Part shown: one piece after another, positions 1-16,501 of the stretch
Layout: every line of letters begins with the position of its first letter
Position numbering within the stretch: position 1 is the stretch's first letter
Position numbers and translations under genes: made by a program
DNA from: a virus
Strand: one strand, 5' to 3'
DNA: 16,501 nucleotides
Virus genome (UHGV): UHGV-0096653
The notes under the pieces: model-generated
What the model saw: only the letters and a program-made list of their open reading frames with translations
Told to the model about the DNA's origin: nothing
Databases searched by the model: none

Positions 1-589
1 CCCACTGGCGCTTTTTAGGGCTGAATACAACCGCATCAGGATGGCGAGTTAAAAAATCCTGTTCATCCGTCTGCGTGTCCGGTTGCGAAGCGTCCGGACG
101 AGAAGGGTTTTTTTCTGACGGATCATGTTTTGATTTTACTGACGGATCCCCGCCAGATTCTGACGGGTCAAAACTGGTTTTTTTGGTGGATTCCGACGCC
201 TCAAATTTTGAGGGGTCAATTTTTGACGCATCAGATTTTGACGGTTCAGATTTTGATGTGTCAGATTTTGACGGGTCAGAATCTGACAGTTGAGAAAATG
301 CCGCTGCCTGAAGCTTCGCAACGTTAAGCTGATAAACATTCGACGCATTGCGGTTACCCTGGCGACGCGCCTTACGCGTTAACCAGCCTTCTGCTTCCAG
401 CCGTGCGATAGCCGTTCTGACGGTACTCATCCCCGCGCCAATCTGACGGGCAATGGTTTCAATTGATGGCCAGCACACACCTTCGTCATTACTGAAATCA
501 GCCAGGCGGGCCATAATTGCCACGCTGGATAATTTCATGCCTGATGCAGCGCAACCATCCCATACATAGCCGGTTAATTTAGTGCTCAT
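1..589 (-). CDS. Phage replication initiator-like protein (lambda O-like role), 3' end beyond window
   Basis: Minus-strand frame open from ATG at 589-587 to the window edge (absent from ORF track because no stop is in the window). Translation starts MSTKLTGYVWDGCAASGMKLSSVAIMARLADFSNDEGVCWPSIETIARQIGAGMSTVRTAIARLEAEGWLTRKAR, a winged-helix DNA-binding N-terminus, followed by pentapeptide repeats (DPSKS-like) encoded by tandem 15-bp DNA repeats. Sits after cro/cII-like genes as lambda O does. Confidence 0.6.
   Translation of the reverse strand, partial: MSTKLTGYVWDGCAASGMKLSSVAIMARLADFSNDEGVCWPSIETIARQIGAGMSTVRTAIARLEAEGWLTRKARRQGNRNASNVYQLNVAKLQAAAFSQLSDSDPSKSDTSKSEPSKSDASKIDPSKFEASESTKKTSFDPSESGGDPSVKSKHDPSEKNPSRPDASQPDTQTDEQDFLTRHPDAVVFSPKKRQW
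201..290. repeat. Six tandem 15-bp direct repeats (consensus TCAGATTTTGACGGG), iteron-like; candidate origin inside the initiator gene
   Basis: Head-to-tail units at 201, 216, 231, 246, 261, 276; degenerate copies also at 128-182. Iterons embedded in the initiator gene is the lambda ori/O arrangement. Confidence 0.6.
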
Positions 590-598
590 GACCGACCT

Positions 599-937
599 CT
601 ATTTCCCTGAATTTACGACGAAACTGTTCGAGCGGACTGAAGCATTCATGTTCATAGCCTTCACGGAGGTAGATAACCCGTTGTGTTTCCGGCTCCCAAC
701 GAATGACTCTGACGGGCACTCCGTAGTGATCTTTGAACCAGCGGTTAACTTGTCGCAAAGGACTGTCTCCTTCTGCCGGTTGAAATCACCCACAGCCCAC
801 TCTGCAAAGCTGTGGGTTACAATTTCCCTGTCACCTGGTACATTCACTGCATAGCAATACTCCACCTTCGCTTTTCCACCCGGTACAGGAAGTGCAATCA
901 GTTGCGAACGACGGTAGTGTGTTGTTAAACTGTTCAT
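599..937 (-). CDS. Hypothetical protein (112 aa), translationally coupled to upstream CII-like gene
   Basis: ORF track; its ATG (937-935) overlaps the TGA (936-934) of the upstream gene as ATGA; same strand as the early operon. No recognisable motif. Confidence 0.4.
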
Positions 938-1524
938 GCGTTAGTTTCTCCACAACCAGAAGCAATCGACGCCACGACGCCCGGAGCTGCACACTCGCGG
1001 GCGTTACTCTTTTCTGGAGCGCAAAAGATTTTGTAGACCAGTGCTGCATGCTCCTGGAGCTTCGAAATTGACAGATACAACTCATCATTAATTGCTGTCT
1101 GCTCGTGTGGCTCCACTACCCCATCTTCGATTGCCGAACGAATCTGCTTTGAGTAACTCCCGATCTGTTCGATGACTTCCAGCAGGCGCTGGTTAATATC
1201 GGCGTTGTCCACATCCTCGACGTCAGGAAGAGACACAAAGACGCCATTTGCAGACTGCGCCACAGCATCAGCAATGAAGTGAGTGCCACCAGCACGCTGT
1301 AAAACCATTGCCCATCCCAGCGGGAAAATCTGATCGCCATCAGCACGAAGGCGGTTAAATAATGCGTTCTCTGTTACATCCAGCCAGTCAGCTGCTTCAG
1401 CGTAACCACCCGGCAACGTTGCGATAGTTTTTCTGACAGCTTTCACGTACCACTCAGGCTGTTTTTCTACTTTCCAGTGATGCTTACCCACGGCTATCTC
1501 CTTAAAACTGTGGTTACTTTCCAT
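934..1524 (-). CDS. CII-like early regulatory protein (possibly CP76/YdaT-type), 196 aa
   Basis: ORF directly downstream of the Cro-like gene in the same operon, the position of lambda cII or Rac ydaT. Family assignment is by position and general resemblance only; the annotated start overlaps the cro-like stop by 11 nt, so the true start may be internal. Confidence 0.4.
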
Positions 1525-1762
1525 CTGATAAGTCTTTAATCTTTTGAAAAATATCTGGACGTAATTTTTCTTTTGATACGCCAGTGGTCATTTCAATAAA
1601 TATCGAGAGCTTTGCAGGGGGACGCTTTTCTCTGTTCAACCAGTTCCAGACATGTTGTTGCTTTACTAAACGACCACTGCTGGCTGTGAGCTTCCGAGCC
1701 AATTCTGATTGACCACCAGCCAGAGCGATTGCCTCTGATAAGGCTAATTGCTCAGGTGTCAT
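1514..1762 (-). CDS. Cro-like HTH regulator (YdaS-like)
   Basis: 82 aa with HTH segment AIALAGGQSELARKLTASSGRL; divergent from the CI-like repressor; good RBS (AGGAGA) before ATG at 1762; consensus TATAAT -10 upstream on the minus strand. Confidence 0.7.
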   Translation of the reverse strand: MTPEQLALSEAIALAGGQSELARKLTASSGRLVKQQHVWNWLNREKRPPAKLSIFIEMTTGVSKEKLRPDIFQKIKDLSDGK

Positions 1763-1784
1763 AGCTTTCTCCTATCTGTAAGTA

Positions 1785-1875
1785 GTAAAGTTGTTGATAA
1801 CTTCGATTATACAACTACAACAACTTTTATCACAACTTTTAGATGTTGGAAAGCTAAAACATAAAGTTGTAACCT
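1785..1875. promoter_or_regulatory. OR-like operator cluster with divergent promoters (PR-like for cro on minus, PRM-like for cI on plus)
   Basis: Repeated half-site AAGTTGT/ACAACTT at about 1788, 1811, 1820, 1833, 1864, including the imperfect palindrome AAGTTGTTGATAACTT. Minus-strand -10 TATAAT (complement of 1806-1811) with -35 TTGTGA (complement of 1830-1835), 18-bp spacer. Confidence 0.65.
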
Positions 1876-1899
1876 CAATAAAAACGAGGGGGATATGTT

Positions 1900-2586
1900 G
1901 TGAAAACATTGGCAGAAAGACTAAAAAGCGAAAGAGAAAAAGCAGGAATGAGTCAGGCGCAACTAGCTGAAAAAATTGGGCTTTCACAACAATCCGTAGC
2001 GAAAATCGAGAATGGAGAAACTCAACAGCCTCGGAAAATTAAAGAGATTGCTAAAGTGTTAGGGGTTTCTCAAAAGTGGTTGCAATTGGGCATTGAGGAT
2101 AACGCGTCTTTCCCAGACCTTGTTGTAAAGGAGGCTGAAAGTACAGCATTAGATCCTGACATTTTTGCAAACATTCCAGTCCTAGATGTCGAGTTATCAG
2201 CGGGTAATGGATGTTTGGCTGAAATAGTTGAATCAACTGTAGACTGGTTCCCGCTAAGAAGGATTGATTTAAGAAAAGCTGGTGTATGTGTCTCCAATGC
2301 AAAGATCGTAAAAATTTGGGGCAATAGTTTACTACCTGTACTTAACAATGGAGATTTTGTTGCTGTTGATGTTTCCCAAACGGTTCCTATTCGTGATGGG
2401 GATCTTTATGCCATACGTGATGGCGTATTACTTAGAGTTAAAATATTGATCAATTTACCTGACGGTGGTCTGATTCTAAGAAGTTTCAATAAAGATGAGT
2501 ATCCAGATGAAATTCTCACCTTCGAAGATAGGCGTTCCAGAATTCACGTTATAGGTAGAGTATTCTGGTCATCGCGCACTTGGTAA
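1900..2586 (+). CDS. CI-like phage repressor, N-terminal HTH plus C-terminal S24 (LexA-like) autopeptidase domain
   Basis: 228 aa; HTH MSQAQLAEKIGLSQQSVAKIENG; Ala-Gly cleavage site in ELSAGNG; Ser-Lys dyad context (WGNSLLP ... LLRVKIL); GTG start at 1900 preceded by GAGGGGG. Confidence 0.85.
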   Translation: MKTLAERLKSEREKAGMSQAQLAEKIGLSQQSVAKIENGETQQPRKIKEIAKVLGVSQKWLQLGIEDNASFPDLVVKEAESTALDPDIFANIPVLDVELSAGNGCLAEIVESTVDWFPLRRIDLRKAGVCVSNAKIVKIWGNSLLPVLNNGDFVAVDVSQTVPIRDGDLYAIRDGVLLRVKILINLPDGGLILRSFNKDEYPDEILTFEDRRSRIHVIGRVFWSSRTW

Positions 2587-2613
2587 TGCATCAAAAAACC
2601 TTCCTTCAGAAAT

Positions 2614-2718
2614 TTAGTTACCATTATTACCCGCCTTTTCAATCTTCCTCCCGTGATTTGAGAGTTTCCAATCACGGAAGGAAAGTGTCCCTTGTGTAAT
2701 TAAAAGCGCATCGTCCAT
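2614..2718 (-). CDS. Small hypothetical ORF (34 aa, MDDALLITQGTLSFRDWKLSNHGRKIEKAGNNGN)
   Basis: Strong SD AAGGAGG 5 nt upstream of ATG (minus strand); no recognisable domain; convergent with cI. Confidence 0.3.
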   Translation of the reverse strand: MDDALLITQGTLSFRDWKLSNHGRKIEKAGNNGN

Positions 2719-2772
2719 ACAACCTCCTTTTTTGATAACCCTTGCCCTCATTTCACATCCGTCAAAACCACA

Positions 2773-2830
2773 TAAAGTTGTTGACAACAACCAAAACAAC
2801 AACTAGATTACAACTTAAAGATGTTGCAGT
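2773..2830 (+). promoter_or_regulatory. PL-like promoter with second operator cluster
   Basis: -35 TTGACA (2781-2786), 17-bp spacer, -10 TAGATT (2804-2809). Carries near-copies of OR motifs: TAAAGTTGTTGACAAC (vs TAAAGTTGTTGATAAC at 1794) and ACAACTTAAAGATGTTG (vs ACAACTTTTAGATGTTG at 1843). Confidence 0.6.
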
Positions 2831-2924
2831 AACGAACAGGCAGGACGCCCACGAAGTAGCCGCCGGTGGCGTATGAATGACCGGATGATTCGTTAGCAAC
2901 AAAAAAGCGCCCTACAGGACGCTT

Positions 2925-2937
2925 TGCTCTTTAAAAA
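2925..2937 (+). promoter_or_regulatory. boxA-like element (TGCTCTTTAAAAA), possible nut-type antitermination site
   Basis: Close match to rrn/lambdoid boxA (TGCTCTTTAACAA / CGCTCTTA); lies about 120 nt downstream of the PL-like promoter on the same strand. Confidence 0.4.
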
Positions 2938-3090
2938 TCAGTAACCCTCACTTTGGGCCTGGACCTGGTGGCCTGGGACGAGGAGGAATATGAAAAGGCT
3001 CTATTGGTCGGCTCATTATCCAATCCTATTATGTCTCATTTCTTCGGTTTCGGTGGTTTCGGCTTCGGAGGTACATGTCCGTGAACTGGA

Positions 3091-3585
3091 TTATGCTTGT
3101 TGCTCATCATTAATATCCGTTAGTTCATTCTCTAGAGGTAGATCTCCCGCACACCAAGCTATAAATTTTTCTTTGGTTGTTAAATCGTACTTAGTTGGAA
3201 CACCAGCAAAAATACAGGCCCGAATGAAAGCCGCTCGTTCAAGTGATTTCCATGGATTACTATCAGTATCTTGGATTTTTAAATACCTAGCTTGCAACTG
3301 ATCTTCAGAAAGAGTATCAGACTCAATCAGCAGTCTTTTGTAATGTCTCGCTTGTTCTTTAGACATCCCAGCCTCCTGGCCGAACTGATAGACCAACTGA
3401 AGAACCGAAAGTACGGCAACAAACAAACCAAAAATAAATAAATTACTGTACGGGGCGAAAACTGAAAAACCGAGAACGATTAACATCAACGTTATTAATT
3501 TATCAATGCGAGTTAACAACGTGTAATTCATCTTCTCCAATACATAAGAGTAGTGAATATAAAATTTATAATCGTCTCTGGTCAT
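3091..3585 (-). CDS. Two-TM inner-membrane protein, candidate superinfection-exclusion (SieB-like) protein
   Basis: 164-aa ORF (probable start at internal ATG 3531 with GGAG RBS, giving MNYTLLTRIDKL...). Two hydrophobic helices (LITLMLIVLGFSVFAPY, LFIFGLFVAVLSVLQLVY) then a charged C-terminal domain. AT-rich relative to flanks; immediately beside the immunity region. Confidence 0.55.
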   Translation of the reverse strand: MTRDDYKFYIHYSYVLEKMNYTLLTRIDKLITLMLIVLGFSVFAPYSNLFIFGLFVAVLSVLQLVYQFGQEAGMSKEQARHYKRLLIESDTLSEDQLQARYLKIQDTDSNPWKSLERAAFIRACIFAGVPTKYDLTTKEKFIAWCAGDLPLENELTDINDEQQA

Positions 3586-3967
3586 ATTAGTCTCAGTTTT
3601 CCTTGGGTGGTTTTGGAGGAACTGGAGGCTTTTGTCTTAACGGCACATGCCTCTCCTCATACTTATCTACACATAGATCCATATAAATCCTTATCGTTGT
3701 TGGGGAGGGTTACATAATAACCAAATCCTTGTTGTTGGGGAATAACCAGGTCCACCTCGCCTGATGTGGCTAAAAGCAGGCACATAACAGCTAAGTATTT
3801 TCAACCAGAGAGAATCCTTAGCGTTGTGGTGAATGCGGCTCAGCGCACGCGGGTTAAGGTTGAGGCTGACAGTCGACCTTCTGTGGATACCCACCCGTCT
3901 GGTGTGCAACCTTCGCCAGGCACCGGGAGGCACCCGGCACCACAACTTTATGCTGTGTGTAGTCCTG

Positions 3968-4013
3968 GCGGTACCAGTTTGTACACTTGCTTCCGGCTGG
4001 TACCGCTCTTTTT
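3968..4013 (+). terminator. Rho-independent terminator
   Basis: Perfect 10-bp inverted repeat GCGGTACCAG ... CTGGTACCGC followed by TCTTTTT. Confidence 0.6.
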
Positions 4014-4150
4014 ACAAAACAGAGAAGAGCATCACCGGACGACGGGCTCATAACCCAATCCATCCGGGCGGCTGCCACCGCAGGTGTTCTTCTCTGTTTT
4101 GTGGAGAAACCAACCGACCTTGCAGGGTCGATATGATGAGGAGCAGCAAA

Positions 4151-4513
4151 ATGGCTAGCGAACGCAGTACTGATGTGCAGGCATTTATCGGGGAGCTGGA
4201 CGGCGGCGTATTTGAAACCAAAATCGGCGCAGTTCTCAGTGAAGTCGCTTCCGGTGTGATGAACACGAAAACCAAAGGTAAGGTCTCACTCAACCTGGAA
4301 ATCGAACCATTTGATGAGAACCGTGTGAAAATCAAACACAAACTCTCATATGTTCGCCCGACTAACCGCGGGAAAATTTCCGAAGAAGACACCACCGAAA
4401 CGCCGATGTATGTCAATCGCGGTGGTCGCCTGACTATTCTGCAGGAAGACCAGGGACAATTACTGACTCTTGCCGGTGAACCTGACGGAAAACTCCGCGC
4501 AGCAGGTCATTAA
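4151..4513 (+). CDS. yfdP: YfdP-like hypothetical protein (120 aa)
   Basis: GAGGAG RBS 7 nt before ATG 4151; first gene of an operon whose gene order and product lengths (120/274/178/120) match the E. coli K-12 CPS-53 yfdPQRST cluster as recalled from memory. Confidence 0.5.
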   Translation: MASERSTDVQAFIGELDGGVFETKIGAVLSEVASGVMNTKTKGKVSLNLEIEPFDENRVKIKHKLSYVRPTNRGKISEEDTTETPMYVNRGGRLTILQEDQGQLLTLAGEPDGKLRAAGH

Positions 4514-4578
4514 TATCGTTCTTAATTAACTGATTATTTATCTCATCACTGAATATCTTTATATAGTGAGGACTTATT

Positions 4579-5403
4579 ATGTCTCAGAACTTAGACGCAA
4601 CCGCAATTAATCAAATCCATGCCCTTATTTCTGCTCAGGGTGTTAATGAAATTATCAGTAAGATTGGTGCCGATGCTGTGGCATTGCCTGAGAATTTCCG
4701 CATTCATGATCTGGAAAAATTTAATTTAAATCGCTTCCGTTTCCGTGGTGCGCTTTCCACTGCCAGCATCGATGACTTTACCCGTTATTCTAAAGATCTT
4801 GCAGATGAAGGCACCCGCTGCTTTATCGATGCTGATAATATGCGTGCCGTCAGTGTACTTAACCTGGGTACTATTGATGAACCAGGTCACGCAGATAACA
4901 CCGCCACTCTCAAACTGAAAAAGACAGCACCGTTCTCTGCCCTGCTGTCTGTTAACGACGAGCGTAACTCCCAGAAGTCACTGGCAGAATGGATTGAAGA
5001 CTGGGCCGACTACCTTGTGGGCTTTGATGCTAATGGTGACGCTATTCAGGCAACAAAAGCGGCTGCGGCAGTCCGTAAAATCACGATTGAAGCAAACCAG
5101 ACCGCTGGTTTTGAAGATAATGACTTCAGCGGCAAACGCTCCCTGATGGAATCTGTCGAAGCGAAGACCAAAGACATTATGCCAGTGGCATTTGAATTTA
5201 AATGCGTTCCGTTTGAAGGTCTGAAAGAACGTCCGTTTAAATTACGCCTCAGCATTATCACTGGCGATCGTCCTGTACTGGTTCTGCGCATTATTCAGCT
5301 GGAAGCGGTGCAGGAAGATATGGCTAACGAATTTCGTGATCTGCTTGTTGAGAAATTCAAAGACAGCAAAGTAGAAACCTTTATTGGTACTTTCACCGCC
5401 TGA
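4579..5403 (+). CDS. yfdQ: YfdQ-like protein (DUF2303-type), 274 aa
   Basis: RBS GTGAGGA; length and operon position match yfdQ as recalled. Confidence 0.55.
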
Positions 5404-5530
5404 TTTCATTACTGCAAATGCCCCTGCGGGGGCATTTATGGAAACGTAATTAACTCAATAATCACCGGATGGTGAGGGCTTCCTTTTACCCAAACTCAGC
5501 GCGGTGCAGCGCATATACGTGGAGAACAAA

Positions 5531-6067
5531 ATGTCATTTATTAAAACTTTTTCCGGGAAGCATTTTTATTATGACAAGATAAATAAAGACGACATCGTGA
5601 TTAACGATATCGCGGTTTCCCTTTCAAATATCTGCCGCTTTGCCGGTCATCTTTCTCACTTCTACAGTGTCGCCCAACATGCGGTGCTTTGCAGCCAGCT
5701 GGTGCCGCAGGAATTTGCTTTTGAAGCGTTAATGCATGATGCAACAGAAGCGTATTGCCAGGACATCCCCGCACCACTGAAACGCCTTCTTCCTGACTAT
5801 AAACGGATGGAAGAAAAAATAGACGCCGTAATCCGTGAGAAATACGGGTTACCCCCAGTTATGAGTACGCCCGTGAAATATGCCGATCTTATCATGCTGG
5901 CAACCGAACGCCGCGATCTCGGGCTTGATGATGGCTCTTTCTGGCCTGTACTGGAAGGCATCCCGGCAACAGAGATGTTCAACGTGATTCCACTGGCACC
6001 GGGCCATGCCTACGGGATGTTTATGGAACGTTTTAACGAGTTATCGGAGTTACGCAAATGCGCATGA
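5531..6067 (+). CDS. yfdR: HD-domain phosphohydrolase, YfbR/YfdR-type 5'-deoxynucleotidase
   Basis: 178 aa from ATG 5531 (GGAG RBS). HD signature: H in FAGHLSHFYSVAQHAV and HD in ALMHDATEAY. Confidence 0.7.
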   Translation: MSFIKTFSGKHFYYDKINKDDIVINDIAVSLSNICRFAGHLSHFYSVAQHAVLCSQLVPQEFAFEALMHDATEAYCQDIPAPLKRLLPDYKRMEEKIDAVIREKYGLPPVMSTPVKYADLIMLATERRDLGLDDGSFWPVLEGIPATEMFNVIPLAPGHAYGMFMERFNELSELRKCA

Positions 6068-6420
6068 ATGTTTTCGAAATGGAAGGGTTTCTTCGCGGGA
6101 AATGTGTACCGCGAGATCTGAAAGTGAACGAAACAAATGCTGAGTACCTGGTACGTAAATTCGACGCGCTTGAAGCTAAATGTGCGGCACTGGAAAACAA
6201 AATAATACCAGTGTCAGCTGAACTGCCACCAGCAAATGAAAGTGTTCTGTTATTTGATGCTAACGGAGAAGGCTGGCTGATTGGCTGGCGTTCTCTCTGG
6301 TACACCTGGGGACAAAAAGAAACCGGAGAATGGCAGTGGACATTTCAGGTCGGGGACCTTGAAAACTTCAATATCACTCACTGGGCAGTAATGCCAAAAG
6401 CGCCGGAGGCTGGAGCATAA
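6058..6420 (+). CDS. yfdS: YfdS-like protein (DUF551-type), 120 aa
   Basis: Start overlaps the yfdR-like stop; length and position match. Confidence 0.5.
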   Translation: MRMNVFEMEGFLRGKCVPRDLKVNETNAEYLVRKFDALEAKCAALENKIIPVSAELPPANESVLLFDANGEGWLIGWRSLWYTWGQKETGEWQWTFQVGDLENFNITHWAVMPKAPEAGA

Positions 6421-6773
6421 TGACCACATTTACCAATAAAGAACTGATTAAAGAAATCAAAGAACGAATCAGCAGCCTAGAGGTTCGAGACGATATTGAG
6501 CGCCGTGCTTATGAAATTGCTCTGGCATCGCTAGAAGAGGAGCCGGTGGCATGGCTGCATTCAGAAAATGGCTTAGGTATTCCGGCAATAACGAGGAGTA
6601 AAAACATTGCTGACAGTTGGTTATCAAAGGGCTGGTATGTTCAGCCGCTATATATAGCCAAGCCAGTGCCGGTGGTGCCAGATGCTCGTCCGTCTTTAAA
6701 TAATGGCATAGTCGGCTTTGATGAAGGCTGGAACGCCTGCCGCGCCGCCATGCTTAATGGGAAAGGAGAGTGA
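6420..6773 (+). CDS. yfdT: YfdT-like hypothetical protein, 117 aa
   Basis: TAATG stop/start overlap with previous gene; position in operon. Confidence 0.45.
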   Translation: MTTFTNKELIKEIKERISSLEVRDDIERRAYEIALASLEEEPVAWLHSENGLGIPAITRSKNIADSWLSKGWYVQPLYIAKPVPVVPDARPSLNNGIVGFDEGWNACRAAMLNGKGE

Positions 6774-6774
6774 T

Positions 6775-7038
6775 ATGGCAACTTTAACAAAAAAAGAACG
6801 GGCATGGTTGAACGAATTACAGGACGTTCTTGATCGCTGCCCATCACCGAAAAAAATTGGTTTTTACACCATTGGCGATAAAAGCATTTACCTGTATGAC
6901 CTGCGCCGCATGGATGAAATCATGGAGGCTCTTGATAATCGTTCGTCAATGGATTGGTGTGTTGCTGTCCATGATATGAATGCAGGGTTTGATGAAAAGA
7001 TTTTGTTCCCCTCATCAGTTGAAAGCACAGCAGGATAA
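6775..7038 (+). CDS. Small hypothetical protein (87 aa), last gene of the operon
   Basis: Strong RBS AAAGGAGAG before ATG 6775 (track start 6718 is a less likely upstream extension); followed by a terminator. Confidence 0.5.
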   Translation: MATLTKKERAWLNELQDVLDRCPSPKKIGFYTIGDKSIYLYDLRRMDEIMEALDNRSSMDWCVAVHDMNAGFDEKILFPSSVESTAG

Positions 7039-8181: not shown

Positions 8182-9210
8182 ATCAAGAAGAGCATAAGAG
8201 TTAAAACGGATCACCTCTTCGCCAAGCCAGTCATTGATGTGCTTCATAGCCTCCATGACGGGCATCAGCTCGTTAATTGCGTAAACCCGCGCTGCCTTCT
8301 CCACATCGCCAAACGCACTTTTTTCGCCCGGCATCGCCCCCATCAGTTGCGGCGGAACGCGGTGCGCAGCCAGCACATCATCACGGGATGCCGCCTTAAC
8401 ATTCATGAATTCATCTTTTGCGGTGATCTGCTGGAACGGCAAAATTTGCACCCCCTCTTTGCCCCCGTTGGGCGCATGAATGAGCACGTTTTTAAACGCA
8501 CCACCACCACGTGCCCCCTGTAGCGTTTCTTTCAGGGAGTCCATGCTTTCGCGGTTTACCTGCGCTGCACCGATGTAGATGATGCACCCGGCGTGGGATC
8601 CGTTGTCGTAGTACAGTTTTCTGAACATGTCCGCCGAATGAGAAAGGCTGGCCGAGAGTAATGCGCCAAGATATTCCGGCATGCCGTAGATTTCCTGGTT
8701 AATATCCGGATTCATCAGGTGGCACACTTTGCCAGGACGAAACTGAAACGCGTCCTTGCCATCCTGCACATACCACCATGATTCAAGATCGCTTCCGCGT
8801 CGCATGTATTTCGCCAGTGCGTGCCGTAATTTAAGCGGTTCGCCGAGCATATTGCTTCGAAGCTCAAGGTATGCGTTACCGAACACAAACCAGTCCAGCG
8901 CCAGCGCCGAGAAATCCTGCCGGGAAAGCAGCGGGTGCGGGATGTAGCAACCGAGTAATACATTGCGCTTAAAGTAAAGCGCAGACTGATGCCAGGACGT
9001 TTGCCGGGCAGCTCTTGCCAGACCGTACCAGTCCACCGGTGTTTCATACCACCGCCCGTTATCAGCACAGTACATATTGTCCAGCAGGTCATGCCCGGTC
9101 AGGCGATAAGGACCATCAAATGTGAATGCACTGAGCGATGATTCTTTCCTGAGCGCATCAGCGAGATCAATGCGTGAACTCATGCGCACTTTTTTATTTT
9201 TTCTGCTCAT
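8164..9210 (-). CDS. Q: P2-type portal protein (gpQ-like)
   Basis: 348 aa; size and position immediately downstream of, and overlapping, the terminase large subunit on the same strand, as in P2 Q-P. Confidence 0.8.
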   Translation of the reverse strand: MSRKNKKVRMSSRIDLADALRKESSLSAFTFDGPYRLTGHDLLDNMYCADNGRWYETPVDWYGLARAARQTSWHQSALYFKRNVLLGCYIPHPLLSRQDFSALALDWFVFGNAYLELRSNMLGEPLKLRHALAKYMRRGSDLESWWYVQDGKDAFQFRPGKVCHLMNPDINQEIYGMPEYLGALLSASLSHSADMFRKLYYDNGSHAGCIIYIGAAQVNRESMDSLKETLQGARGGGAFKNVLIHAPNGGKEGVQILPFQQITAKDEFMNVKAASRDDVLAAHRVPPQLMGAMPGEKSAFGDVEKAARVYAINELMPVMEAMKHINDWLGEEVIRFNSYALLDEKTAP

Positions 9211-10961
9211 CAGAACTCCATAACCGTGAAACGCTCGTTTTCTCCTTCGCCGCCAATTGGTTCGTTAATGACAGCAAGCATGGTTGCCCACGCAAGGTCG
9301 CCGTGGCTGATCCCCCTCGCGCGGTCCGTTTCGTAAGTGATAAAGCCGCCCGGTGTTTTCACCTTACGCACGGCGTTAAAGGCTGCGACCAGCTCGCGTT
9401 CGGCGCGATCGTATTCCCACCGCCCGGCGCGCATTATTTGCAGCATTTTCAGTACCAGCGACCGTTTTGATGACAGCGTGAAGGTGTACGGAATAGCAGC
9501 AGGGAAAAACCGTTTCACTATCTGATAAACAGCCTCCCCGTTCCCGCCTGTCACATCAATGCCGATGTGTTCCACGTTGTAGCGACACGTGAACTCTTCA
9601 ATGACTCTGGCCTGTTCTTCAAACTCCAGCCCCTGAACGCGTCGCGTCTCCACCGTTCGAAAACGGCCTCCAGGAACAGCCGGAGGAACCACCACGGACA
9701 CAGCGCCGCTGTCGCCGTTTCCACTGCTGCCGTTTGCGTCATACCCAATCCATACCGGACGATTCCCCATCGGGCGGGGAGCAAAAGGTTTCCAGTCTTT
9801 CCAGTCGTCGTATCCGTCAACACCACAGCCAATCAGGATATTCAGGTTAAATGCCGATTCCCCTTCGCGGACAAACTCACACATATAGAGATTGAGGAAC
9901 TCGTCTTCGGTGTTTTCATCACGAATTTCATCAATATCGGTGTGTTTCCAGCCGTGATTAACCACATCTTCCAGCGTGACAATTTGCCGCCACGTCCGGT
10001 CAGGGCAGATAAGCCCGTTATGCAGCGTTTTCCAGTCCACAGAAAAACGCTGGCGTTTATGCGAGGCCTTTTTCTCGTTCCAGCGGTCGCCGTTCCAGTA
10101 GGCGTATGCCTCGTGCGTTTCGGTGGATGGCGTGGAGAAGTAGGTGCGCCGCAGTCCGCTGAGGGTTGCCATAGCGCCAGCCACCTTGCGCAGTTCAGCA
10201 AAGCGACTGACCCAGAAAAATTCATCAAAATAAAAATTGCCCGTGTAGGACTGTGCCGTCGCAGCAGAAGTACCAAGAAAATGCAGCTCTGCGCCGTTGG
10301 AGAGGATGATTTTATCGCCCCCTTTCAGCTCCACATCAACTTCAGATGCAGCCTCCTGAATAATGCTTTTAAACTGGAACGCCTGACGACGCGACGCAGA
10401 CAAAAAAATCTGGTTACGCTGGTAAGGTTGCGCCACATCGTCACGCAGCGCCATCAGCAGTGCTTCCTGAGCAAAATACCAGGTCGCCCCAATCTGTCGG
10501 GATTTCAGGATCATCCTGTTACGTATCCCGGCCTCCCTGCAAAGGGTCAGGGAGTCAAACCAGCCCCGCTGATGCCACTCCAGCCTGCTGATGATTTTTT
10601 CCCGCAGTGCGGCAATCTGTTCCGGCGTGAAATGATTTTTGAGTTTTTTCGCCCGGCTTTTCTTTCCTGTGGCCGTCGCATCCGGCTGGCCATCATGCAG
10701 TTTTTTAAGCTGCCGGGTCAGCAGGTCTATTTCCTTGAAGTCACCACCTGTTTTATTCTGTTTTTCAGTAAGCTGGATGAGGCGCGAATCGATGGACTGC
10801 GTGACACGCTGCACGGGTGGCGTTTCATCCCACTGGTCGCGTTTTTTCCACGCATAAATCGTGTTCGGGTTTATTCCCATCAGACGTGATATTTCTGCGG
10901 GCGGATAACCCTGCCAGTAAAGTTGCCGCGCACGCTGGCGCACAAAAGCGTCCTGAATCAT
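9210..10961 (-). CDS. P: P2-type terminase large (ATPase) subunit (gpP-like)
   Basis: 583 aa; N-terminus MIQDAFVRQRARQLYWQGYPPAEISRLMGINPNTIYAWKKRDQWDE typical of P2-family gpP; divergent from the O-N-M-L operon. Confidence 0.85.
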   Translation of the reverse strand: MIQDAFVRQRARQLYWQGYPPAEISRLMGINPNTIYAWKKRDQWDETPPVQRVTQSIDSRLIQLTEKQNKTGGDFKEIDLLTRQLKKLHDGQPDATATGKKSRAKKLKNHFTPEQIAALREKIISRLEWHQRGWFDSLTLCREAGIRNRMILKSRQIGATWYFAQEALLMALRDDVAQPYQRNQIFLSASRRQAFQFKSIIQEAASEVDVELKGGDKIILSNGAELHFLGTSAATAQSYTGNFYFDEFFWVSRFAELRKVAGAMATLSGLRRTYFSTPSTETHEAYAYWNGDRWNEKKASHKRQRFSVDWKTLHNGLICPDRTWRQIVTLEDVVNHGWKHTDIDEIRDENTEDEFLNLYMCEFVREGESAFNLNILIGCGVDGYDDWKDWKPFAPRPMGNRPVWIGYDANGSSGNGDSGAVSVVVPPAVPGGRFRTVETRRVQGLEFEEQARVIEEFTCRYNVEHIGIDVTGGNGEAVYQIVKRFFPAAIPYTFTLSSKRSLVLKMLQIMRAGRWEYDRAERELVAAFNAVRKVKTPGGFITYETDRARGISHGDLAWATMLAVINEPIGGEGENERFTVMEF

Positions 10962-11115
10962 TGCTCCCCCTGAGTAATTACAGGAAGATTACCCGCGCGC
11001 GAAACCGTTCTCCTTAACCCCCTGCTCTGACTGTTTTCTTACAACAAAAGCCCTTTGTATCTGCCTGTTACGCTTTGCCATCATGACTGAAGAACCAGTC
11101 AGAGGGGCAAAAGCT
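10962..11115. promoter_or_regulatory. Divergent late-promoter region between P and O (P2 PP/PO equivalent)
   Basis: Position only; no clean TGT-N12-ACA activator dyad could be confirmed by eye. Confidence 0.35.
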
Positions 11116-11975: not shown

Positions 11976-13028
11976 ATGAATCTGGTGATGTCAGATATTA
12001 CCCGCAACAAGCTGGGTTGCTATATGGCGCAGCAGGCGTCGCTTAACAATATCCCGGTATCTGCACTGGTATCGCGATTTACCGTGGAACCCGCGGTGCA
12101 GCAGCGTTTTGAAAACGCCTCAAAGGAAAGTACCGAATTTACGAAAAGAATTAACGTGATCGGCGTGACCGACCAGAAAGGCGAAAAAATCCTCCTGGAC
12201 ACCACCGGGCCAATTGCACGCACGAATAGCAGTTATGACGGCATCAAACGCCGTAACCCGAATAACGTGATCGATATGAAGTCTCGTCAGTACCAGTGCG
12301 AACAGGTGAACTACGATACCTTTATTTCGTACCCACAGCTTGATACCTGGGCGGCCCACAGCGATTTTCAGTCCCGTATCAGTACACAGATCGCCCGGCA
12401 GGTAGCGCTTGATCGCATCATGATTGGCTTTAACGGCACATCCCACGCCTACGAGTCTGATTTTCACACCAACAAGCTGCTTCAGGACGTTAACGTGGGC
12501 TGGCTGGAGCACATCAGAACCGATGCCAGCGAGCGCGTAATGAATGACGTGACGCTGACCTCCCGCAACATGGACAACACTGTGGCGCACGCGGGTAAGT
12601 ATGCGAATGCCGATGCTCTGGTACAGGATGCGCGCTCATCCCTGCTGGATGAATGGCACAAGGAAGCTGACGACCTCGCGGTGATTATGGGGCGCAACCT
12701 GTTTAACTCGCTGCGTCTGCCCGTGCTGAACAGCATCAGCGGCCAGAATCCCAATGCGGAATTACTTGCCGGGCAGCTCATCCTGTCATCGCGCACCATT
12801 GGCGGGCTGGGCGTGTTCCTTGCGCCGTTCTTCCCGGATGCAACGATGCTTATCACCTCGTTCAACAACCTGTCGATTTACTGGCAGAAAGGTTCAATGC
12901 GTCGCCTGATGAAAGACGAGCCGGAATACAACCGCATCGCCACCTACCAGTCCATCAATGACGCTTATGTCGTTGAAGACTATGGCAAGTGCGCAATGAT
13001 CACTGGCCTGAAGTTCGCCGACAGCTAA
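11976..13028 (+). CDS. N: P2-type major capsid protein (gpN-like)
   Basis: 350 aa; motifs shared with recalled P2 gpN: FTVEP, IMIGFNG (IMAGFNG), GWLE, NLSIYWQ (NLSIYY), YVVEDY. Confidence 0.85.
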   Translation: MNLVMSDITRNKLGCYMAQQASLNNIPVSALVSRFTVEPAVQQRFENASKESTEFTKRINVIGVTDQKGEKILLDTTGPIARTNSSYDGIKRRNPNNVIDMKSRQYQCEQVNYDTFISYPQLDTWAAHSDFQSRISTQIARQVALDRIMIGFNGTSHAYESDFHTNKLLQDVNVGWLEHIRTDASERVMNDVTLTSRNMDNTVAHAGKYANADALVQDARSSLLDEWHKEADDLAVIMGRNLFNSLRLPVLNSISGQNPNAELLAGQLILSSRTIGGLGVFLAPFFPDATMLITSFNNLSIYWQKGSMRRLMKDEPEYNRIATYQSINDAYVVEDYGKCAMITGLKFADS

Positions 13029-13975: not shown

Positions 13976-14470
13976 ATGAGTATGGTTGCCAGAACTAACC
14001 CCGGCCCCGCAGAGGACGACATCACCGACACCGATGATGGCGATACCCGTATTTCAGCGGGTGCATTCTGGCCGGATATTGTGCTGCGCGAGCTGCGTCT
14101 GGCGGTACGACTGCCGGGCCGCGTGACCACCTCCCGCCTGCTGCATACCGCCACCGGGGCCATAGCACACGTTACCCGCGAGCTGGAAGCATGGCAGCAG
14201 GAACAACAGGCGGCTGGCTATCAGACGCTGGCCGATGTTCCGGCCCCTGTAATTAACGGAGAAAGCGTCAATCTCTGGCACTGGCGCAATGCTGTTTATA
14301 CCGCCACACGCGCCCTGATTCTGGAGCGTTACCGCGATGCGGACACAACGGACAAGGGCGACCGCCGGGCGGACGCACTGGATATACAGACATCGGATTT
14401 GTGGCGCGATGTGAGCTGGGCCATCTCTGACATTCTGGGACGACCGCGAATGTTTGCGGAGCTGTGCTGA
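13976..14470 (+). CDS. L: P2-type head completion/stabilisation protein (gpL-like)
   Basis: 164 aa from ATG 13976 (GGAG RBS); LADVPA..INGESV and ELWRD resemble recalled P2 gpL (LADVPADDIDGESI, ELWRD). Confidence 0.75.
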   Translation: MSMVARTNPGPAEDDITDTDDGDTRISAGAFWPDIVLRELRLAVRLPGRVTTSRLLHTATGAIAHVTRELEAWQQEQQAAGYQTLADVPAPVINGESVNLWHWRNAVYTATRALILERYRDADTTDKGDRRADALDIQTSDLWRDVSWAISDILGRPRMFAELC

Positions 14471-14670
14471 TGAAAGTGAAGGCACTGGAAGGCGACACCG
14501 TGGATTCGCTCTGTTTCCGGTACTACGGCACGACACAGGGCGTCACCGAAAAGGTGCTGGATGCCAACCCCGGACTCTGTCAGCAGGTATTTCTGGACGC
14601 CGGGCAGGAAGTGGAGATGCCGGAGCCGGAGAAGAAGAAACGAGAAATGATTCAGTTGTGGGGGGAGTAG
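14470..14670 (+). CDS. X: P2 gpX-like small protein (LysM-like tail protein X)
   Basis: 66 aa MKVKALEGDTVDSLCFRYYGTTQGVTEKVLDANPGL resembles recalled P2 X (MKTFALQGDTLDAICVRYYGRTEGVVETVLAANPGL); ATGA overlap with L. Confidence 0.8.
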   Translation: MKVKALEGDTVDSLCFRYYGTTQGVTEKVLDANPGLCQQVFLDAGQEVEMPEPEKKKREMIQLWGE

Positions 14671-14672
14671 CA

Positions 14673-14996
14673 GTGAGCACCATTCAAACAGGGATCACAG
14701 AGCAGGTTATTGCGTGGCTCTTTGACCACCTGCCAACGGTGTATGCAGTAGGCGCGGCTGTCAGCATTTCCGCGCTGATGAGTCTTTATGACGGACGAAC
14801 ACTGGTTCAGACCGTAACGGGATCGCTGGCGTGCGGCGTTCTTGCCATGGCCGTGGCCGGGTCGCTGCGCTTCTTCGGGATCCCTGAGGATGCAGTGACG
14901 TTTTTTGGTGCCTCAATCGGTTTTATGGGCGCAGAGAAAGCACGCGACAAGGTTATTGCAATATTTGATCGCAGGGTGAAGGAGAGGAACGAATGA
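14673..14996 (+). CDS. Holin (three predicted TM segments)
   Basis: GTG start after GGGGGAG; hydrophobic segments PTVYAVGAAVSISALMSLY, VTGSLACGVLAMAVAGSL, AVTFFGASIGFMGA and a charged C-terminus; directly upstream of the endolysin with ATGA overlap. Confidence 0.65.
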   Translation: MSTIQTGITEQVIAWLFDHLPTVYAVGAAVSISALMSLYDGRTLVQTVTGSLACGVLAMAVAGSLRFFGIPEDAVTFFGASIGFMGAEKARDKVIAIFDRRVKERNE

Positions 14997-15385
14997 GCAA
15001 CACATTTAAATTCAGCAGCCGAAGCGAAAAGAATTTGCAGGGTGTAAATCCTGATCTGGTGAAAGTGACCCGACGGGCGCTGGAAATCTCGGAAGTGGAT
15101 TTTGGTATCACCGAAGGATTGCGCAGTCGTTATCGTCAGAAGCAGCTCGTGACCACAGGCAAGAGCCAGACCATGAACAGTCGCCATCTCACAGGGCATG
15201 CCGTGGATGTTGTGGCTTATGTCGGCAACCAGGTGTCATGGGAATGGCCGCTGTACGAAAAAATCGCAGCAGCATTCAGACAGGCCAGCCAGGAACTGAA
15301 TATTCCGGTGGAATGGGGCGGCGACTGGAAGACCCTGAAAGACGGACCGCATTTTCAGTTACCACACGGAGCCTATCCGGCATGA
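14993..15385 (+). CDS. Endolysin, peptidase M15 family (L-alanyl-D-glutamate endopeptidase type, T5 Lys-like)
   Basis: 130 aa; zinc-ligand context SRHLTGHAVDV and C-terminal GPHFQL; overall resemblance to the recalled T5 endolysin. Confidence 0.75.
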   Translation: MSNTFKFSSRSEKNLQGVNPDLVKVTRRALEISEVDFGITEGLRSRYRQKQLVTTGKSQTMNSRHLTGHAVDVVAYVGNQVSWEWPLYEKIAAAFRQASQELNIPVEWGGDWKTLKDGPHFQLPHGAYPA

Positions 15386-15789
15386 AGCTCTGGCCCACGC
15401 TTGGCGTCGCTTTCCTTCTGATTGCCGCATGGGGAACATCCATGCGTCTGTCGTGGTCGCTGGGCCGGGAGAACGCCAGAAACGAAGCGCAGGCCAGCAC
15501 CCTGAAAAGTACCGTCGACACACTGAATATCATCAGCGCCGGGGTACAGGATATGCAGCAGGTGCTGGCTCAGCTCCGCGCGGAAAATCAGCAACGCAAT
15601 CAGGACGGAGAGGTAAGACGTGAACAGCTACGCAACGATATTGCAAAAGATGAATGCGCCCACGCTTTGCCTGACGCTCGTTTTACTGACAGGTTGCGCA
15701 GGCACGCAGAACGCGCCAGGGCCAGCGCCGTCAGTCCGGCTTATACCGCAGACGCTGACCATGCCGGTAACGCCTCCCCCCTTCCCTGA
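15382..15789 (+). CDS. i-spanin (Rz/LysB-like)
   Basis: ATGA overlap with endolysin; N-terminal TM (LWPTLGVAFLLIAAWG) then a Q/R-rich coiled-coil-like region; contains the o-spanin gene in another frame. Confidence 0.7.
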   Translation: MKLWPTLGVAFLLIAAWGTSMRLSWSLGRENARNEAQASTLKSTVDTLNIISAGVQDMQQVLAQLRAENQQRNQDGEVRREQLRNDIAKDECAHALPDARFTDRLRRHAERARASAVSPAYTADADHAGNASPLP

Positions 15790-15931
15790 CCCACCCACAT
15801 GGGGAAACCTCGGAATATGGGGCGACCGCCTTCTGGATGCACTGGAAACCTGTAACGCGGATAAACGGGCCATTGCTGAACTGGATAAGAGAATAGCCGA
15901 ACTGACACACCAGACGGGAGTAACACAATGA
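15620..15931 (+). CDS. o-spanin (Rz1/LysC-like outer-membrane lipoprotein), overlapping the i-spanin in a different frame
   Basis: GTG 15620 after GGAGAGG (alternative ATG 15650); lipobox LLTGC; proline-rich mature region PVTPPPFPDPP; ATGA overlap with downstream gene. Confidence 0.65.
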   Translation: MNSYATILQKMNAPTLCLTLVLLTGCAGTQNAPGPAPSVRLIPQTLTMPVTPPPFPDPPTWGNLGIWGDRLLDALETCNADKRAIAELDKRIAELTHQTGVTQ

Positions 15932-16501
15932 CCAGTAAGAACTTTGCACTGATTACAGCCATGACACAGGCTGAACTGACTCAAAAGGTGAATGAACATC
16001 TTGCGAAAGGGTGGCATCTTCAGGGGGAGACGCGGGTTGCCTACGAACCCGGCACCCCGTGGTATCTAATGCAGGCAATGGTGGCCGATGGCACTACAGA
16101 CATCTCACCTGATTCCCCCCAGCACGGCAGAGTGCCGGAGTGGTATTACGTGGTGGTACTTGCTGGTCAATCCAATGCCATGTCATATGGTGATGGAATG
16201 CCGCTGCCGGATTCTTACGATGCGCCACACCCACGCATTAAGCAACTGGCCCGTCGCAACACAGTGACTCCCGGTGGTAAAGCATGCGCATTTAACGACA
16301 TCATTCCGGCAGACCACTGCCTGCATGATGTTCAGGATATGAGCGCACTGAATCATCCGAAGGCAGACCTGAGCAAAGGGCAGTACGGCTGTGTCGGCCA
16401 GGGCTTACATATTGCCAAAAAACTGCTTCCGTATATCCCGAATAACGCGGGGATCCTGCTGGTACCATGCTGTCGTGGTGGTTCGGCATTCACCCAGGGC
16501 G
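15928..16501 (+). CDS. DUF1737 + SGNH-hydrolase sialate O-acetylesterase-like protein (NanS-p-like), 3' end beyond window
   Basis: Open frame from ATG 15928 to the window end; N-terminal segment MTSKNFALITAMTQAELTQKVNEHLAKGWHLQGE (DUF1737-like) followed by VVLAGQSNAMSYG, the GQSN catalytic-serine block of SGNH esterases. Confidence 0.65.
   Translation, partial: MTSKNFALITAMTQAELTQKVNEHLAKGWHLQGETRVAYEPGTPWYLMQAMVADGTTDISPDSPQHGRVPEWYYVVVLAGQSNAMSYGDGMPLPDSYDAPHPRIKQLARRNTVTPGGKACAFNDIIPADHCLHDVQDMSALNHPKADLSKGQYGCVGQGLHIAKKLLPYIPNNAGILLVPCCRGGSAFTQG

Follow-up and report, generated by a model that had tools for sequence, protein, structure and literature searches.

The right-hand end of UHGV virus genome UHGV-0096653, a stretch of 16,501 nucleotides (nt) referred to here as the window, carries the lysis genes of a P2-type phage and, directly behind them, the beginning of an open reading frame (ORF) that resembles the NanS-p sialate O-acetylesterases. 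NanS-p has been discussed almost only as cargo of Shiga toxin (Stx) phages, and the locus raises the question of what such an enzyme is doing in the late operon of a P2-type phage. The analysis described below indicates that this NanS-p-family esterase is likely to be an accessory gene in the late head-lysis-tail unit of a P88-like (Xuanwuvirus, P2-type) prophage, with a product that would be made late and released at lysis and that may dock on the capsid.

Start, coupling and domains of the esterase gene

The start of the esterase ORF was read directly from the sequence as an ATG at 15928–15930 on the plus strand, with the Shine-Dalgarno sequence GGGAG (15916–15920) located 7 nt 5' of it. The TGA stop codon of the preceding o-spanin gene (15929–15931) shares bases with this ATG, giving the ATGA overlap (15928–15931) that had been reported in the initial annotation. 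The frame continues without a stop through the end of the window, a distance of 191 codons and 574 nt, and the window end cuts the gene within its first third. Scans for promoter and terminator signals of the esterase gave results at or below shuffle expectation. The features of the gene are as follows.

15928..16501, plus strand: nanS-p-type sialate O-acetylesterase gene, 5' 574 nt, codons 1–191 (ORF, Pfam, PDB sequence match, relatives)
15916..15931, plus strand: ribosome-binding site GGGAG and ATGA start/stop overlap, coupling the esterase to the o-spanin (sequence reading)
15928..16092, plus strand: DUF1737 domain, residues 1–55, P2-type ('C') subtype, candidate capsid-docking module (Pfam, AlphaFold2 (AF2) model, subtype comparison)
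16093..16137, plus strand: linker, residues 56–70, predicted to be disordered (AF2, nucleotide alignment)
16138..16501, plus strand: N-terminal part of the SASA/NanS-like SGNH catalytic domain (Pfam, PDB sequence match)

Pfam analysis of the window ORF gave DUF1737 at residues 4–53 with an expectation value (E) of 2.5e-7, which exceeds the curated cut-off, and SASA at residues 75–188 with an E of 0.0015, which falls under the cut-off only because the window end cuts the domain; the window holds DUF1737 and the first 120 residues of SASA. The GQSN block is at residues 80–83 (16165–16176) and includes the catalytic Ser82 (16171–16173), so that the combination of DUF1737 with an SGNH esterase, first proposed from the ORF, is borne out by the Pfam matches, the GQSN serine and the start of SASA. 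A hydrophobic leader was not seen at the N-terminus when this was read from the sequence, no dedicated signal-peptide predictor having been run. The N-terminus is formed by the folded DUF1737 domain, beginning with a strand at residues 4–11 and a helix at residues 14–26 in the AF2 model.

Full-length relatives and catalytic identity

The downstream part of the gene was obtained from a locus in E. coli MS 198-1 (L001), which is 99.8% identical over window positions 15600–16501 and contains 2 mismatches in the 574 gene bases. The gene in this locus is 1878 nt long and encodes a protein of 625 residues, named 'DUF6645 domain-containing protein' in RefSeq, with the architecture DUF1737 (E 3.4e-7), SASA (E 6.8e-13) and the lectin-like DUF6645 (E 1.9e-19). 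Residues 69–388 match 320 residues of the chromosomal NanS/YjhS (PDB id. 3pt5) with an E of 1e-121; Ser82, within the window, and His368, in the motif THFSS from the MS 198-1 locus and outside the window, align to the Ser19/His301 dyad of 3pt5. Residues 430–622, also outside the window, match the crystallised C-terminal jelly-roll domain of phi24B NanS-p (6yp6) with an E of 3e-30. By these matches the ORF is the start of a NanS-p-family gene, as the initial annotation had it. In the MS 198-1 locus the tail genes R and S begin 23 nt after the esterase and lead on to V, W, J, I and the other genes of the tail cluster, consistent with the placement that had been assigned to the gene behind the spanins of a P2-type late string (lysC-esterase-R-S). 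A tail protein with incidental GQSN similarity was considered and rejected, the protein containing SASA and DUF6645 and being followed by separate R and S genes.

Ratios of non-synonymous to synonymous substitution (dN/dS) were 0.06–0.09 for DUF1737, 0.10–0.20 for SASA and 0.16–0.5 for the C-terminal domain of diverged pairs. By these estimates the purifying selection on DUF1737 is at least as strong as that on SASA, and the C-terminal domain evolves faster.

Two loci from IMG/VR (L012, L025) encode full-length esterases of 627 residues; in contrast to the other P88-like loci, the flank fetched on their downstream side showed no homologue of R or S. A 327-residue E. coli protein annotated as 'i-spanin Rz' (P0086) contains Pfam Phage_lysis, DUF1737 and SASA domains, and is either a spanin-esterase read-through fusion or an annotation artefact.

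Filled and empty sites in P88-like prophages

Filled sites were counted by megablast of window positions 15600–16501 against 5426 complete E. coli genomes, with at least 80% of the query present. The filled junction was found in 376 genomes, at up to 99.8% identity, and the empty P88-type junction in 689. The esterase is present in about 7% of complete E. coli genomes, via a P2-type prophage. Roughly one P88-like prophage in three carries it, as an accessory gene. RefSeq already annotates the gene in hundreds of genomes. Among the carriers are strain C227-11 of the O104:H4 outbreak and ST131-type strains. A passage of PMC8065619 that cites Saile 2018 describes all five NanS-p of the Stx-phage-cured derivative C227-11phi-cu as active esterases, and the esterase of the present family in C227-11 may be one of those five tested enzymes.

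Phage P88 (NC_026014) and its close relatives run from lysC straight into R without an esterase. The P88 lysis cassette is shared with the window up to 15875, with 96% nucleotide identity over 14464–15875. Pairwise comparison with P88 revealed that 93 bp had been swapped for 1995 bp, and that the swap also alters lysC over its last ~17 codons and R over its first ~14, so that this is not a clean insertion. Insertion of the esterase directly after the lysis cassette, as originally described, is therefore correct for the position of the gene but not for the event, in which 93 bp were replaced and the ends of lysC and R were altered.

The same slot in diverged P2-type lineages

IMG/VR was scanned with the esterase N-terminus and its nearest relative as queries, giving 33 distinct loci. 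All 33 are located behind P2-type gpN-gpL-gpX-lysC, the short contig L033 being without gpN. Full-length alleles were present in 21 loci, 4 contained truncated (frameshifted) alleles of 218–286 residues and 8 ran off the contig, which corresponds to 21 full-length and 4 truncated alleles in the 25 readable loci. The scans included a sister lineage (L038–L044 and L059), all members of which are from E. coli, with esterases of 642–656 residues in the same slot. Capsid tblastn identified Xuanwuvirus as the nearest described genus, with 61–63% capsid identity, and megablast of one member (L038) against 50,697 phage records gave no match. Protein matches led to two more lineages with the same layout, L061 from E. 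coli and L062 from Salmonella enterica. By sequence comparison, an esterase gene occupies the lysC-R slot of no fewer than four P2-type lineages that have diverged from one another, including the one from Salmonella. The sister lineage together with L061 looks like an undescribed Peduoviridae group and is found in at least 14 complete E. coli genomes.

In the sister lineage a small membrane protein of the DUF1378 family is encoded 3' of the esterase, and is 31–50% identical to the DUF1378 protein that follows nanS-p in the Stx2a phage F451. DUF1378 is missing from the window-type P88-like loci. The esterase and DUF1378 look like a two-gene cassette that occurs in Stx2a Traversvirus phages and in the P2-type sister lineage. 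The DUF1378 genes encode ~55 residues and were located at L059 8587–8751, L042 7098–7295, L044 5337–5489 and L060 5573–5752.

Mosaic relation to lambdoid nanS-p

The full-length gene was compared with a Stx1a-phage nanS-p reference (L002), in which the gene lies between stx1AB and the holin gene. The identity between the L001 and L002 proteins was 36% for DUF1737, 13% for the linker, 89% for the SASA core, 92% for the second linker and 84% for the C-terminal domain. Nucleotide homology to the reference (87.6%) begins at 16134 (codon ~69) and ends precisely with the stop codon, and the full-length window-type protein has a C-terminal domain 97% identical to that of a lambdoid E. albertii allele. 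On these alignments, the catalytic and lectin parts are common to lambdoid phages while the N-terminal domain and both flanks are not. The module exchange suggested earlier did take place with lambdoid phages for the part of the gene from codon ~69 to the stop, but does not extend to DUF1737 and the linker, which are not lambdoid. Transfer of a whole lambdoid gene into a P2-type phage was ruled out by the identities of DUF1737 (36%) and the linker (13%) to the reference.

Among the loci examined, the DUF1737 subtype of the window is seen only in P2-type modules, and its identity to the lambdoid DUF1737 is 20–39%. A word-indexed protein search using the 72-residue N-terminus gave near-identical fragments only. 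An exhaustive search of 1.84 billion representatives gave 10 matches at E<=1e-3, two of which were repetitive false positives, indicating that the C subtype of DUF1737 is rare. A scan of one genome per species, which reaches close relatives only, gave 5 loci, none of them P2-type.

The nanS-p gene of Stx2c phage 2851 (L069 207–2144) is annotated as two ORFs, a DUF1737 protein and a hypothetical protein, which implies a frameshift or stop within nanS-p.

DUF1737 subtype and head type

A matrix of nine sequences divided the DUF1737 domains into a P2 group, with 55–96% identity within the group, and a lambdoid group, with 62–100%, the identity between the groups being 20–39%. No such split between P2 and lambdoid sequences was found in SASA or in the C-terminal domain. 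Two members of the P2-type sister lineage (L042 and L044) are 96% identical in DUF1737, 63% in SASA and 28% in the C-terminal domain. The association was examined with a blind test, for which four N-termini were picked from an alignment of database matches by the loop motif PG-x-P-[FW]-YLMQA. All four were located directly behind spanin genes; three (L061, L062 and L064) belonged to lysis or head strings recognisable as P2-type, and upstream of the fourth (L065), whose contig measures 1.7 kb, only an Rz-type spanin gene is visible. A control with a lambdoid-type N-terminus was located downstream of lambda P and the Q antiterminator.

The first 33 residues of the lambdoid DUF1737 domains are nearly the same in all, and an island of 20 residues, comprising strand 2, the loop and strand 3, varies. 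Two types of island, A and B, were assigned.

Traversvirus capsid (F451, P32, phage 86): A-type island ALISTAGYGAEFIQPV
Capsid of the protease-major capsid protein (MCP) fusion type (Stx1a_14040, 2851, Stx1a_NIID): B-type island PVAITPYTLMQAI

In the 16 typed loci the C type is found with a P2-type head (9/9), the A type with a Traversvirus head (3/3) and the B type with a protease-MCP head (3/3), the remaining locus having a B type with a lambda gpE head. Phage 86 combines an A-type N-terminus (98% identical to F451) with SASA (81%) and C-terminal (91%) domains of the window class, and Stx1a_NIID combines a B-type N-terminus with SASA (97%) and C-terminal (98%) domains of the F451 class. Judged from these loci, the N-terminal subtype follows the head type, and the catalytic and C-terminal parts are reciprocally swapped. 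A strict rule of one subtype per capsid was rejected, since PhiR5_1, which has the lambda gpE/gpD head, carries the B type.

Possible docking of DUF1737 on the capsid

The gp84 (NanS-p) of phage phi24B has been reported as a virion protein, in which DUF1737 hexamers plug the central pore of hexons; the anchor is Tyr42, a loop residue that contacts the capsid, and once released the protein loses its enzyme part by cleavage (bioRxiv 10.64898/2026.04.10.717836). For the virion association raised in the initial annotation, this offers a definite starting point. The AF2 model of the 191 residues in the window had a predicted local distance difference test (pLDDT) score of 77–89 over residues 1–55. 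Its topology is a strand at residues 4–11, a helix at 14–26, a strand at 30–38, a loop at 39–45 (YEPGTPW) and a strand at 46–54, followed by the disordered linker. This predicted topology is the same as that described for phi24B. The strand 2-loop-strand 3 region, which varies with head type, includes Tyr42 in phi24B. No structure of DUF1737 was found in PDB sequence searches using the P2-type and phi24B-type N-termini.

The phi24B gp84 domain belongs to the same Pfam family, and its helix and three-strand fold, strand 2-strand 3 loop and flexible linker match those predicted for the P2-type domain. The two differ in the loop, which is YEPGTPWY in the P2-type domain and STAGYGAEF in phi24B, and in the capsid, which consists of P2 gpN (triangulation number T=7 in P2) for the P2-type gene and the T=9 Traversvirus MCP for phi24B.

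Proposed role of the esterase and alternative explanations

The position of the gene between lysC and R, together with promoter and terminator signals that do not rise above chance, implies that late transcripts reaching R and S pass through the esterase. From P2 biology and the NanS-p literature, the enzyme would be made only after induction, together with the holin, endolysin and spanins, and the absence of a signal peptide suggests that it would leave the cell at lysis. As with other NanS-p, it would be expected to strip 9-O-acetyl groups from free or mucin-bound sialic acids. DUF1737 may attach it to gpN hexons, in which case virions would bear, for a time at least, a module for mucin-glycan binding and esterase activity like the one reported for phi24B gp84. 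From the comparative pattern and the phi24B preprint, there is about an even chance that the P2-type DUF1737 docks the enzyme on the hexons of the gpN capsid. A wider reading is proposed tentatively: that DUF1737 could be an interchangeable docking module specific to head type, that P2-type phages may use a version of their own to display a mucin-directed sialate esterase and lectin on the gpN capsid, and that the cargo may be traded among P2-type myoviruses, lambda-like siphoviruses and Traversvirus podoviruses, each of which keeps its own anchor.

Several observations weigh against docking. P2 capsids are T=7 and have no flat facet-centre hexon. Phi24B is a T=9 podovirus in which DUF1737 is present on the flat facet-centre hexon only (bioRxiv 10.64898/2026.04.10.717836), and this single preprint is the sole direct evidence for DUF1737 as a capsid binder. 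The B-type DUF1737 is present on two heads that are unrelated in sequence. Co-variation of DUF1737 and capsid identity was not found within the P2 group (Spearman 0.20, p 0.48), where capsids with 98% identity carry DUF1737 domains that are just 73% identical; a fine-scale co-evolution of DUF1737 with the capsid was dropped on this correlation. The partition also has a neutral explanation. The upstream flanks are non-homologous between phage types, so recombination replaces only the part 3' of PEWYYV..AGQSN and the 5' domain stays with the recipient automatically. The sample of 16 loci is small and partly non-independent, and the lambdoid set is partly redundant. The window's own esterase copy may also be truncated downstream, as in a second E. 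coli locus considered below.

The esterase could also be a purely soluble 'moron' enzyme that is released by lysis and benefits the sibling lysogens that survive, to which it makes O-acetylated sialic acids available. DUF1737 would then be an oligomerisation or stability domain, with subtypes that reflect old divergence and the lack of upstream homology. This would agree with the published model of NanS-p, in which the enzyme gives a growth advantage on Neu5,9Ac2 (PMC8065619, PMC10462455), with the lack of fine-scale capsid co-variation and with the occurrence of B-type DUF1737 on two different head types. The 4 truncated alleles in 25, together with one locus that has a deletion, further indicate that the gene is dispensable for the prophage. 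However, the purifying selection on DUF1737 is at least equal to that on the catalytic domain, capsid binding is described in the phi24B cryo-electron microscopy preprint, and in the lambdoid phages, where the flanks are shared, the 20-residue island still tracks the head type across catalytic swaps. A purely soluble enzyme is considered somewhat doubtful. Loss of function in this particular genome is unlikely; it would require a copy that is truncated or frameshifted past codon 191, in a prophage that is itself a chimera of lambdoid early and P2-type late genes. A precedent is present in E. coli FDAARGOS_1077 (L011; NZ_CP068155.1, 3329–3966), which is 99.8% identical over the 902-nt query 15600–16501; here the first 630 nt of the esterase are left and adjoin tail gene I in a fusion, the remainder of the esterase and R, S, V, W and J being deleted. 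Frameshifted alleles of 218–286 residues in 4 of the 25 readable IMG/VR loci point the same way, as do the left 6.8 kb of the window, which are a lambdoid immunity and left-arm region, and the largest single piece of the window in any complete E. coli genome, which amounts to at most 59%. Against this, all 191 codons are intact and differ by 2 nt from full-length alleles, and the gene is full length in most relatives.

It is very improbable that the esterase is a tail-borne modifier that deacetylates O-antigen or capsule for adsorption or to block superinfection, in the manner of tail fibres with SGNH esterases. The idea has been raised for NanS-p in general (PMC8065619), and the gene adjoins the tail-completion genes R and S. 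However, P88 and 689 genomes whose tail genes are otherwise near-identical lack it, so tail function does not depend on it. Lambdoid alleles located far from tail genes share 89% identity with the catalytic core, the lambdoid gene adjoining lysis genes instead, and Pfam identified no tail-adaptor, fibre or beta-helix domain. The receptor-modifying role offered in the initial annotation thus found no support. In the preferred interpretation the esterase remains an accessory late gene of a P88-like prophage.

Gene order of the window and additional observations

The features upstream of the esterase are as follows.

15876..15927, plus strand: left junction; P88-like similarity ends at 15875 and the last ~17 lysC codons are unlike P88
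15650..15931, plus strand: o-spanin LysC, lipobox LLTGC, Pfam LysC E 1.2e-13; begins within lysB and reaches past its end
15382..15789, plus strand: i-spanin LysB, DUF2570 family (Pfam, RefSeq annotation of homologue)
14993..15385, plus strand: endolysin, M15 peptidase family (Pfam)
14673..14996, plus strand: holin, GTG start (annotation of the homologous L001 gene)
11976..13028, plus strand: P2-family major capsid protein gpN, putative docking partner of DUF1737

Further 5' of the holin, gpX, gpL, gpM, gpN and gpO were identified from Pfam and RefSeq annotation, and the portal and terminase genes (Q, P) are on the opposite strand to the string from gpO to the lysis genes. The window and the MS 198-1 locus together give the order Q, P (minus strand), then O, N, M, L, X, holin, endolysin, lysB/lysC, R and S, which is the P2 order. 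From the endolysin onward, start and stop codons overlap at each junction. One P88-like IMG/VR locus (L035) encodes a major capsid protein with 100% identity to that of the window. The Ogr/Delta late-promoter motif TGT-N12-ACA, sought upstream of gene O, had no perfect match in 10962–11082, and the number of matches in the whole window, three, does not exceed chance. An ogr gene is present in the complete prophage L001, outside the stretch that corresponds to the window.

The lysC gene of several genomes is annotated in RefSeq as a protein of 62 residues (WP_418510551.1; L001 20144–20332) with a start 3' of the lipobox. A proper lipoprotein signal, MNAPTLCLTLVLLTGC, results from the ATG at 15650, and the short annotation probably has the wrong start.

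Positions 1–6800 of the window are not P2-type and correspond to a lambdoid immunity and left-arm region. They contain a CII-like regulator on the minus strand (934–1524), a repressor with a helix-turn-helix and an S24 LexA-like domain (1900–2586), YfdQ/DUF2303 (4579–5403), a YfdR-like HD 5'-deoxynucleotidase gene (5504–6067) and, also within the left 6.8 kb, DUF551. The same genes form the immunity/left-arm region of a lambdoid prophage in E. coli BS15R-A. They were joined to the P88-type late region in no complete E. coli genome, so the window is either chimeric or made up of two prophage pieces that lie side by side. The complete P88-like prophage L001 contains a ParM-like gene and partition/stability genes beside the replication gene (8762–10037) and, at its right end, a Hok/Gef toxin gene beside ogr (36653–36793). 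An integrated P2-type prophage here holds maintenance genes of the plasmid type.

Comparison with known systems and significance

The P2-type gene shares its DUF1737-SASA-lectin-like architecture with the NanS-p of lambdoid Stx phages (933W L0105/z1466; phi24B gp84, also vb_24B_21; 'yjhS' of Stx1a phage), and both are late genes located beside a lysis cassette and without a signal peptide. They differ in host phage, a P2-type myovirus in one case and a lambdoid phage in the other, and in position. The lambdoid nanS-p lies between stx/Q and holin S, whereas the P2-type gene lies 3' of the spanins and 5' of R and S, and its expression is expected to depend on an Ogr-type activator, not on Q antitermination. 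The chromosomal NanS (YjhS, 3PT5) has the Ser-His dyad and catalytic domain in common with the phage enzyme but lacks DUF1737 and the C-terminal lectin-like domain. It is a periplasmic protein with a signal peptide, and its gene is part of the nan regulon instead of a phage operon. Tail-fibre and tailspike SGNH esterases, which adsorption requires, carry an N-terminal tail adaptor and a trimeric fibre or beta-helix, neither of which was found in the esterase by Pfam.

A precedent for external decoration of the gpN capsid is provided by Psu of satellite P4, which decorates P2-gpN capsids and indicates that gpN hexon centres can accept such a protein. Psu is unrelated in sequence to the esterase DUF1737, is encoded by the satellite and carries no enzyme. 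P2-like phages have non-essential 'moron' slots at tin/old, Z/fun and orf30. As at these sites, the accessory gene of the lysC-R slot is present in some members only (filled:empty 376:689). Unlike them, the lysC-R slot is within the essential late operon and translationally coupled, and its own promoter and terminator signals do not exceed chance.

The family, activity and presence of NanS-p in non-Stx prophages were already known (PMC10462455, PMC8065619), and the P2 context and the domain pattern are modestly new. The literature searched contained no report of nanS-p or DUF1737 in P2-like phages and no description of an anchor that follows the head while its cargo is shuffled. Counts of mucin-sialic-acid scavenging that are based on lambdoid prophages alone miss a common source. 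The anchor and cargo pattern provides independent comparative support for DUF1737 as a capsid-binding domain, and the natural occurrence of P88-like phages with and without the gene makes possible a near-isogenic comparison of virion association and behaviour in mucus. If docking is correct, it would give P2-like phages both their first described phage-encoded capsid decoration and their first described enzyme display, and the exchange of cargo would take place among phages in the same E. coli cells.

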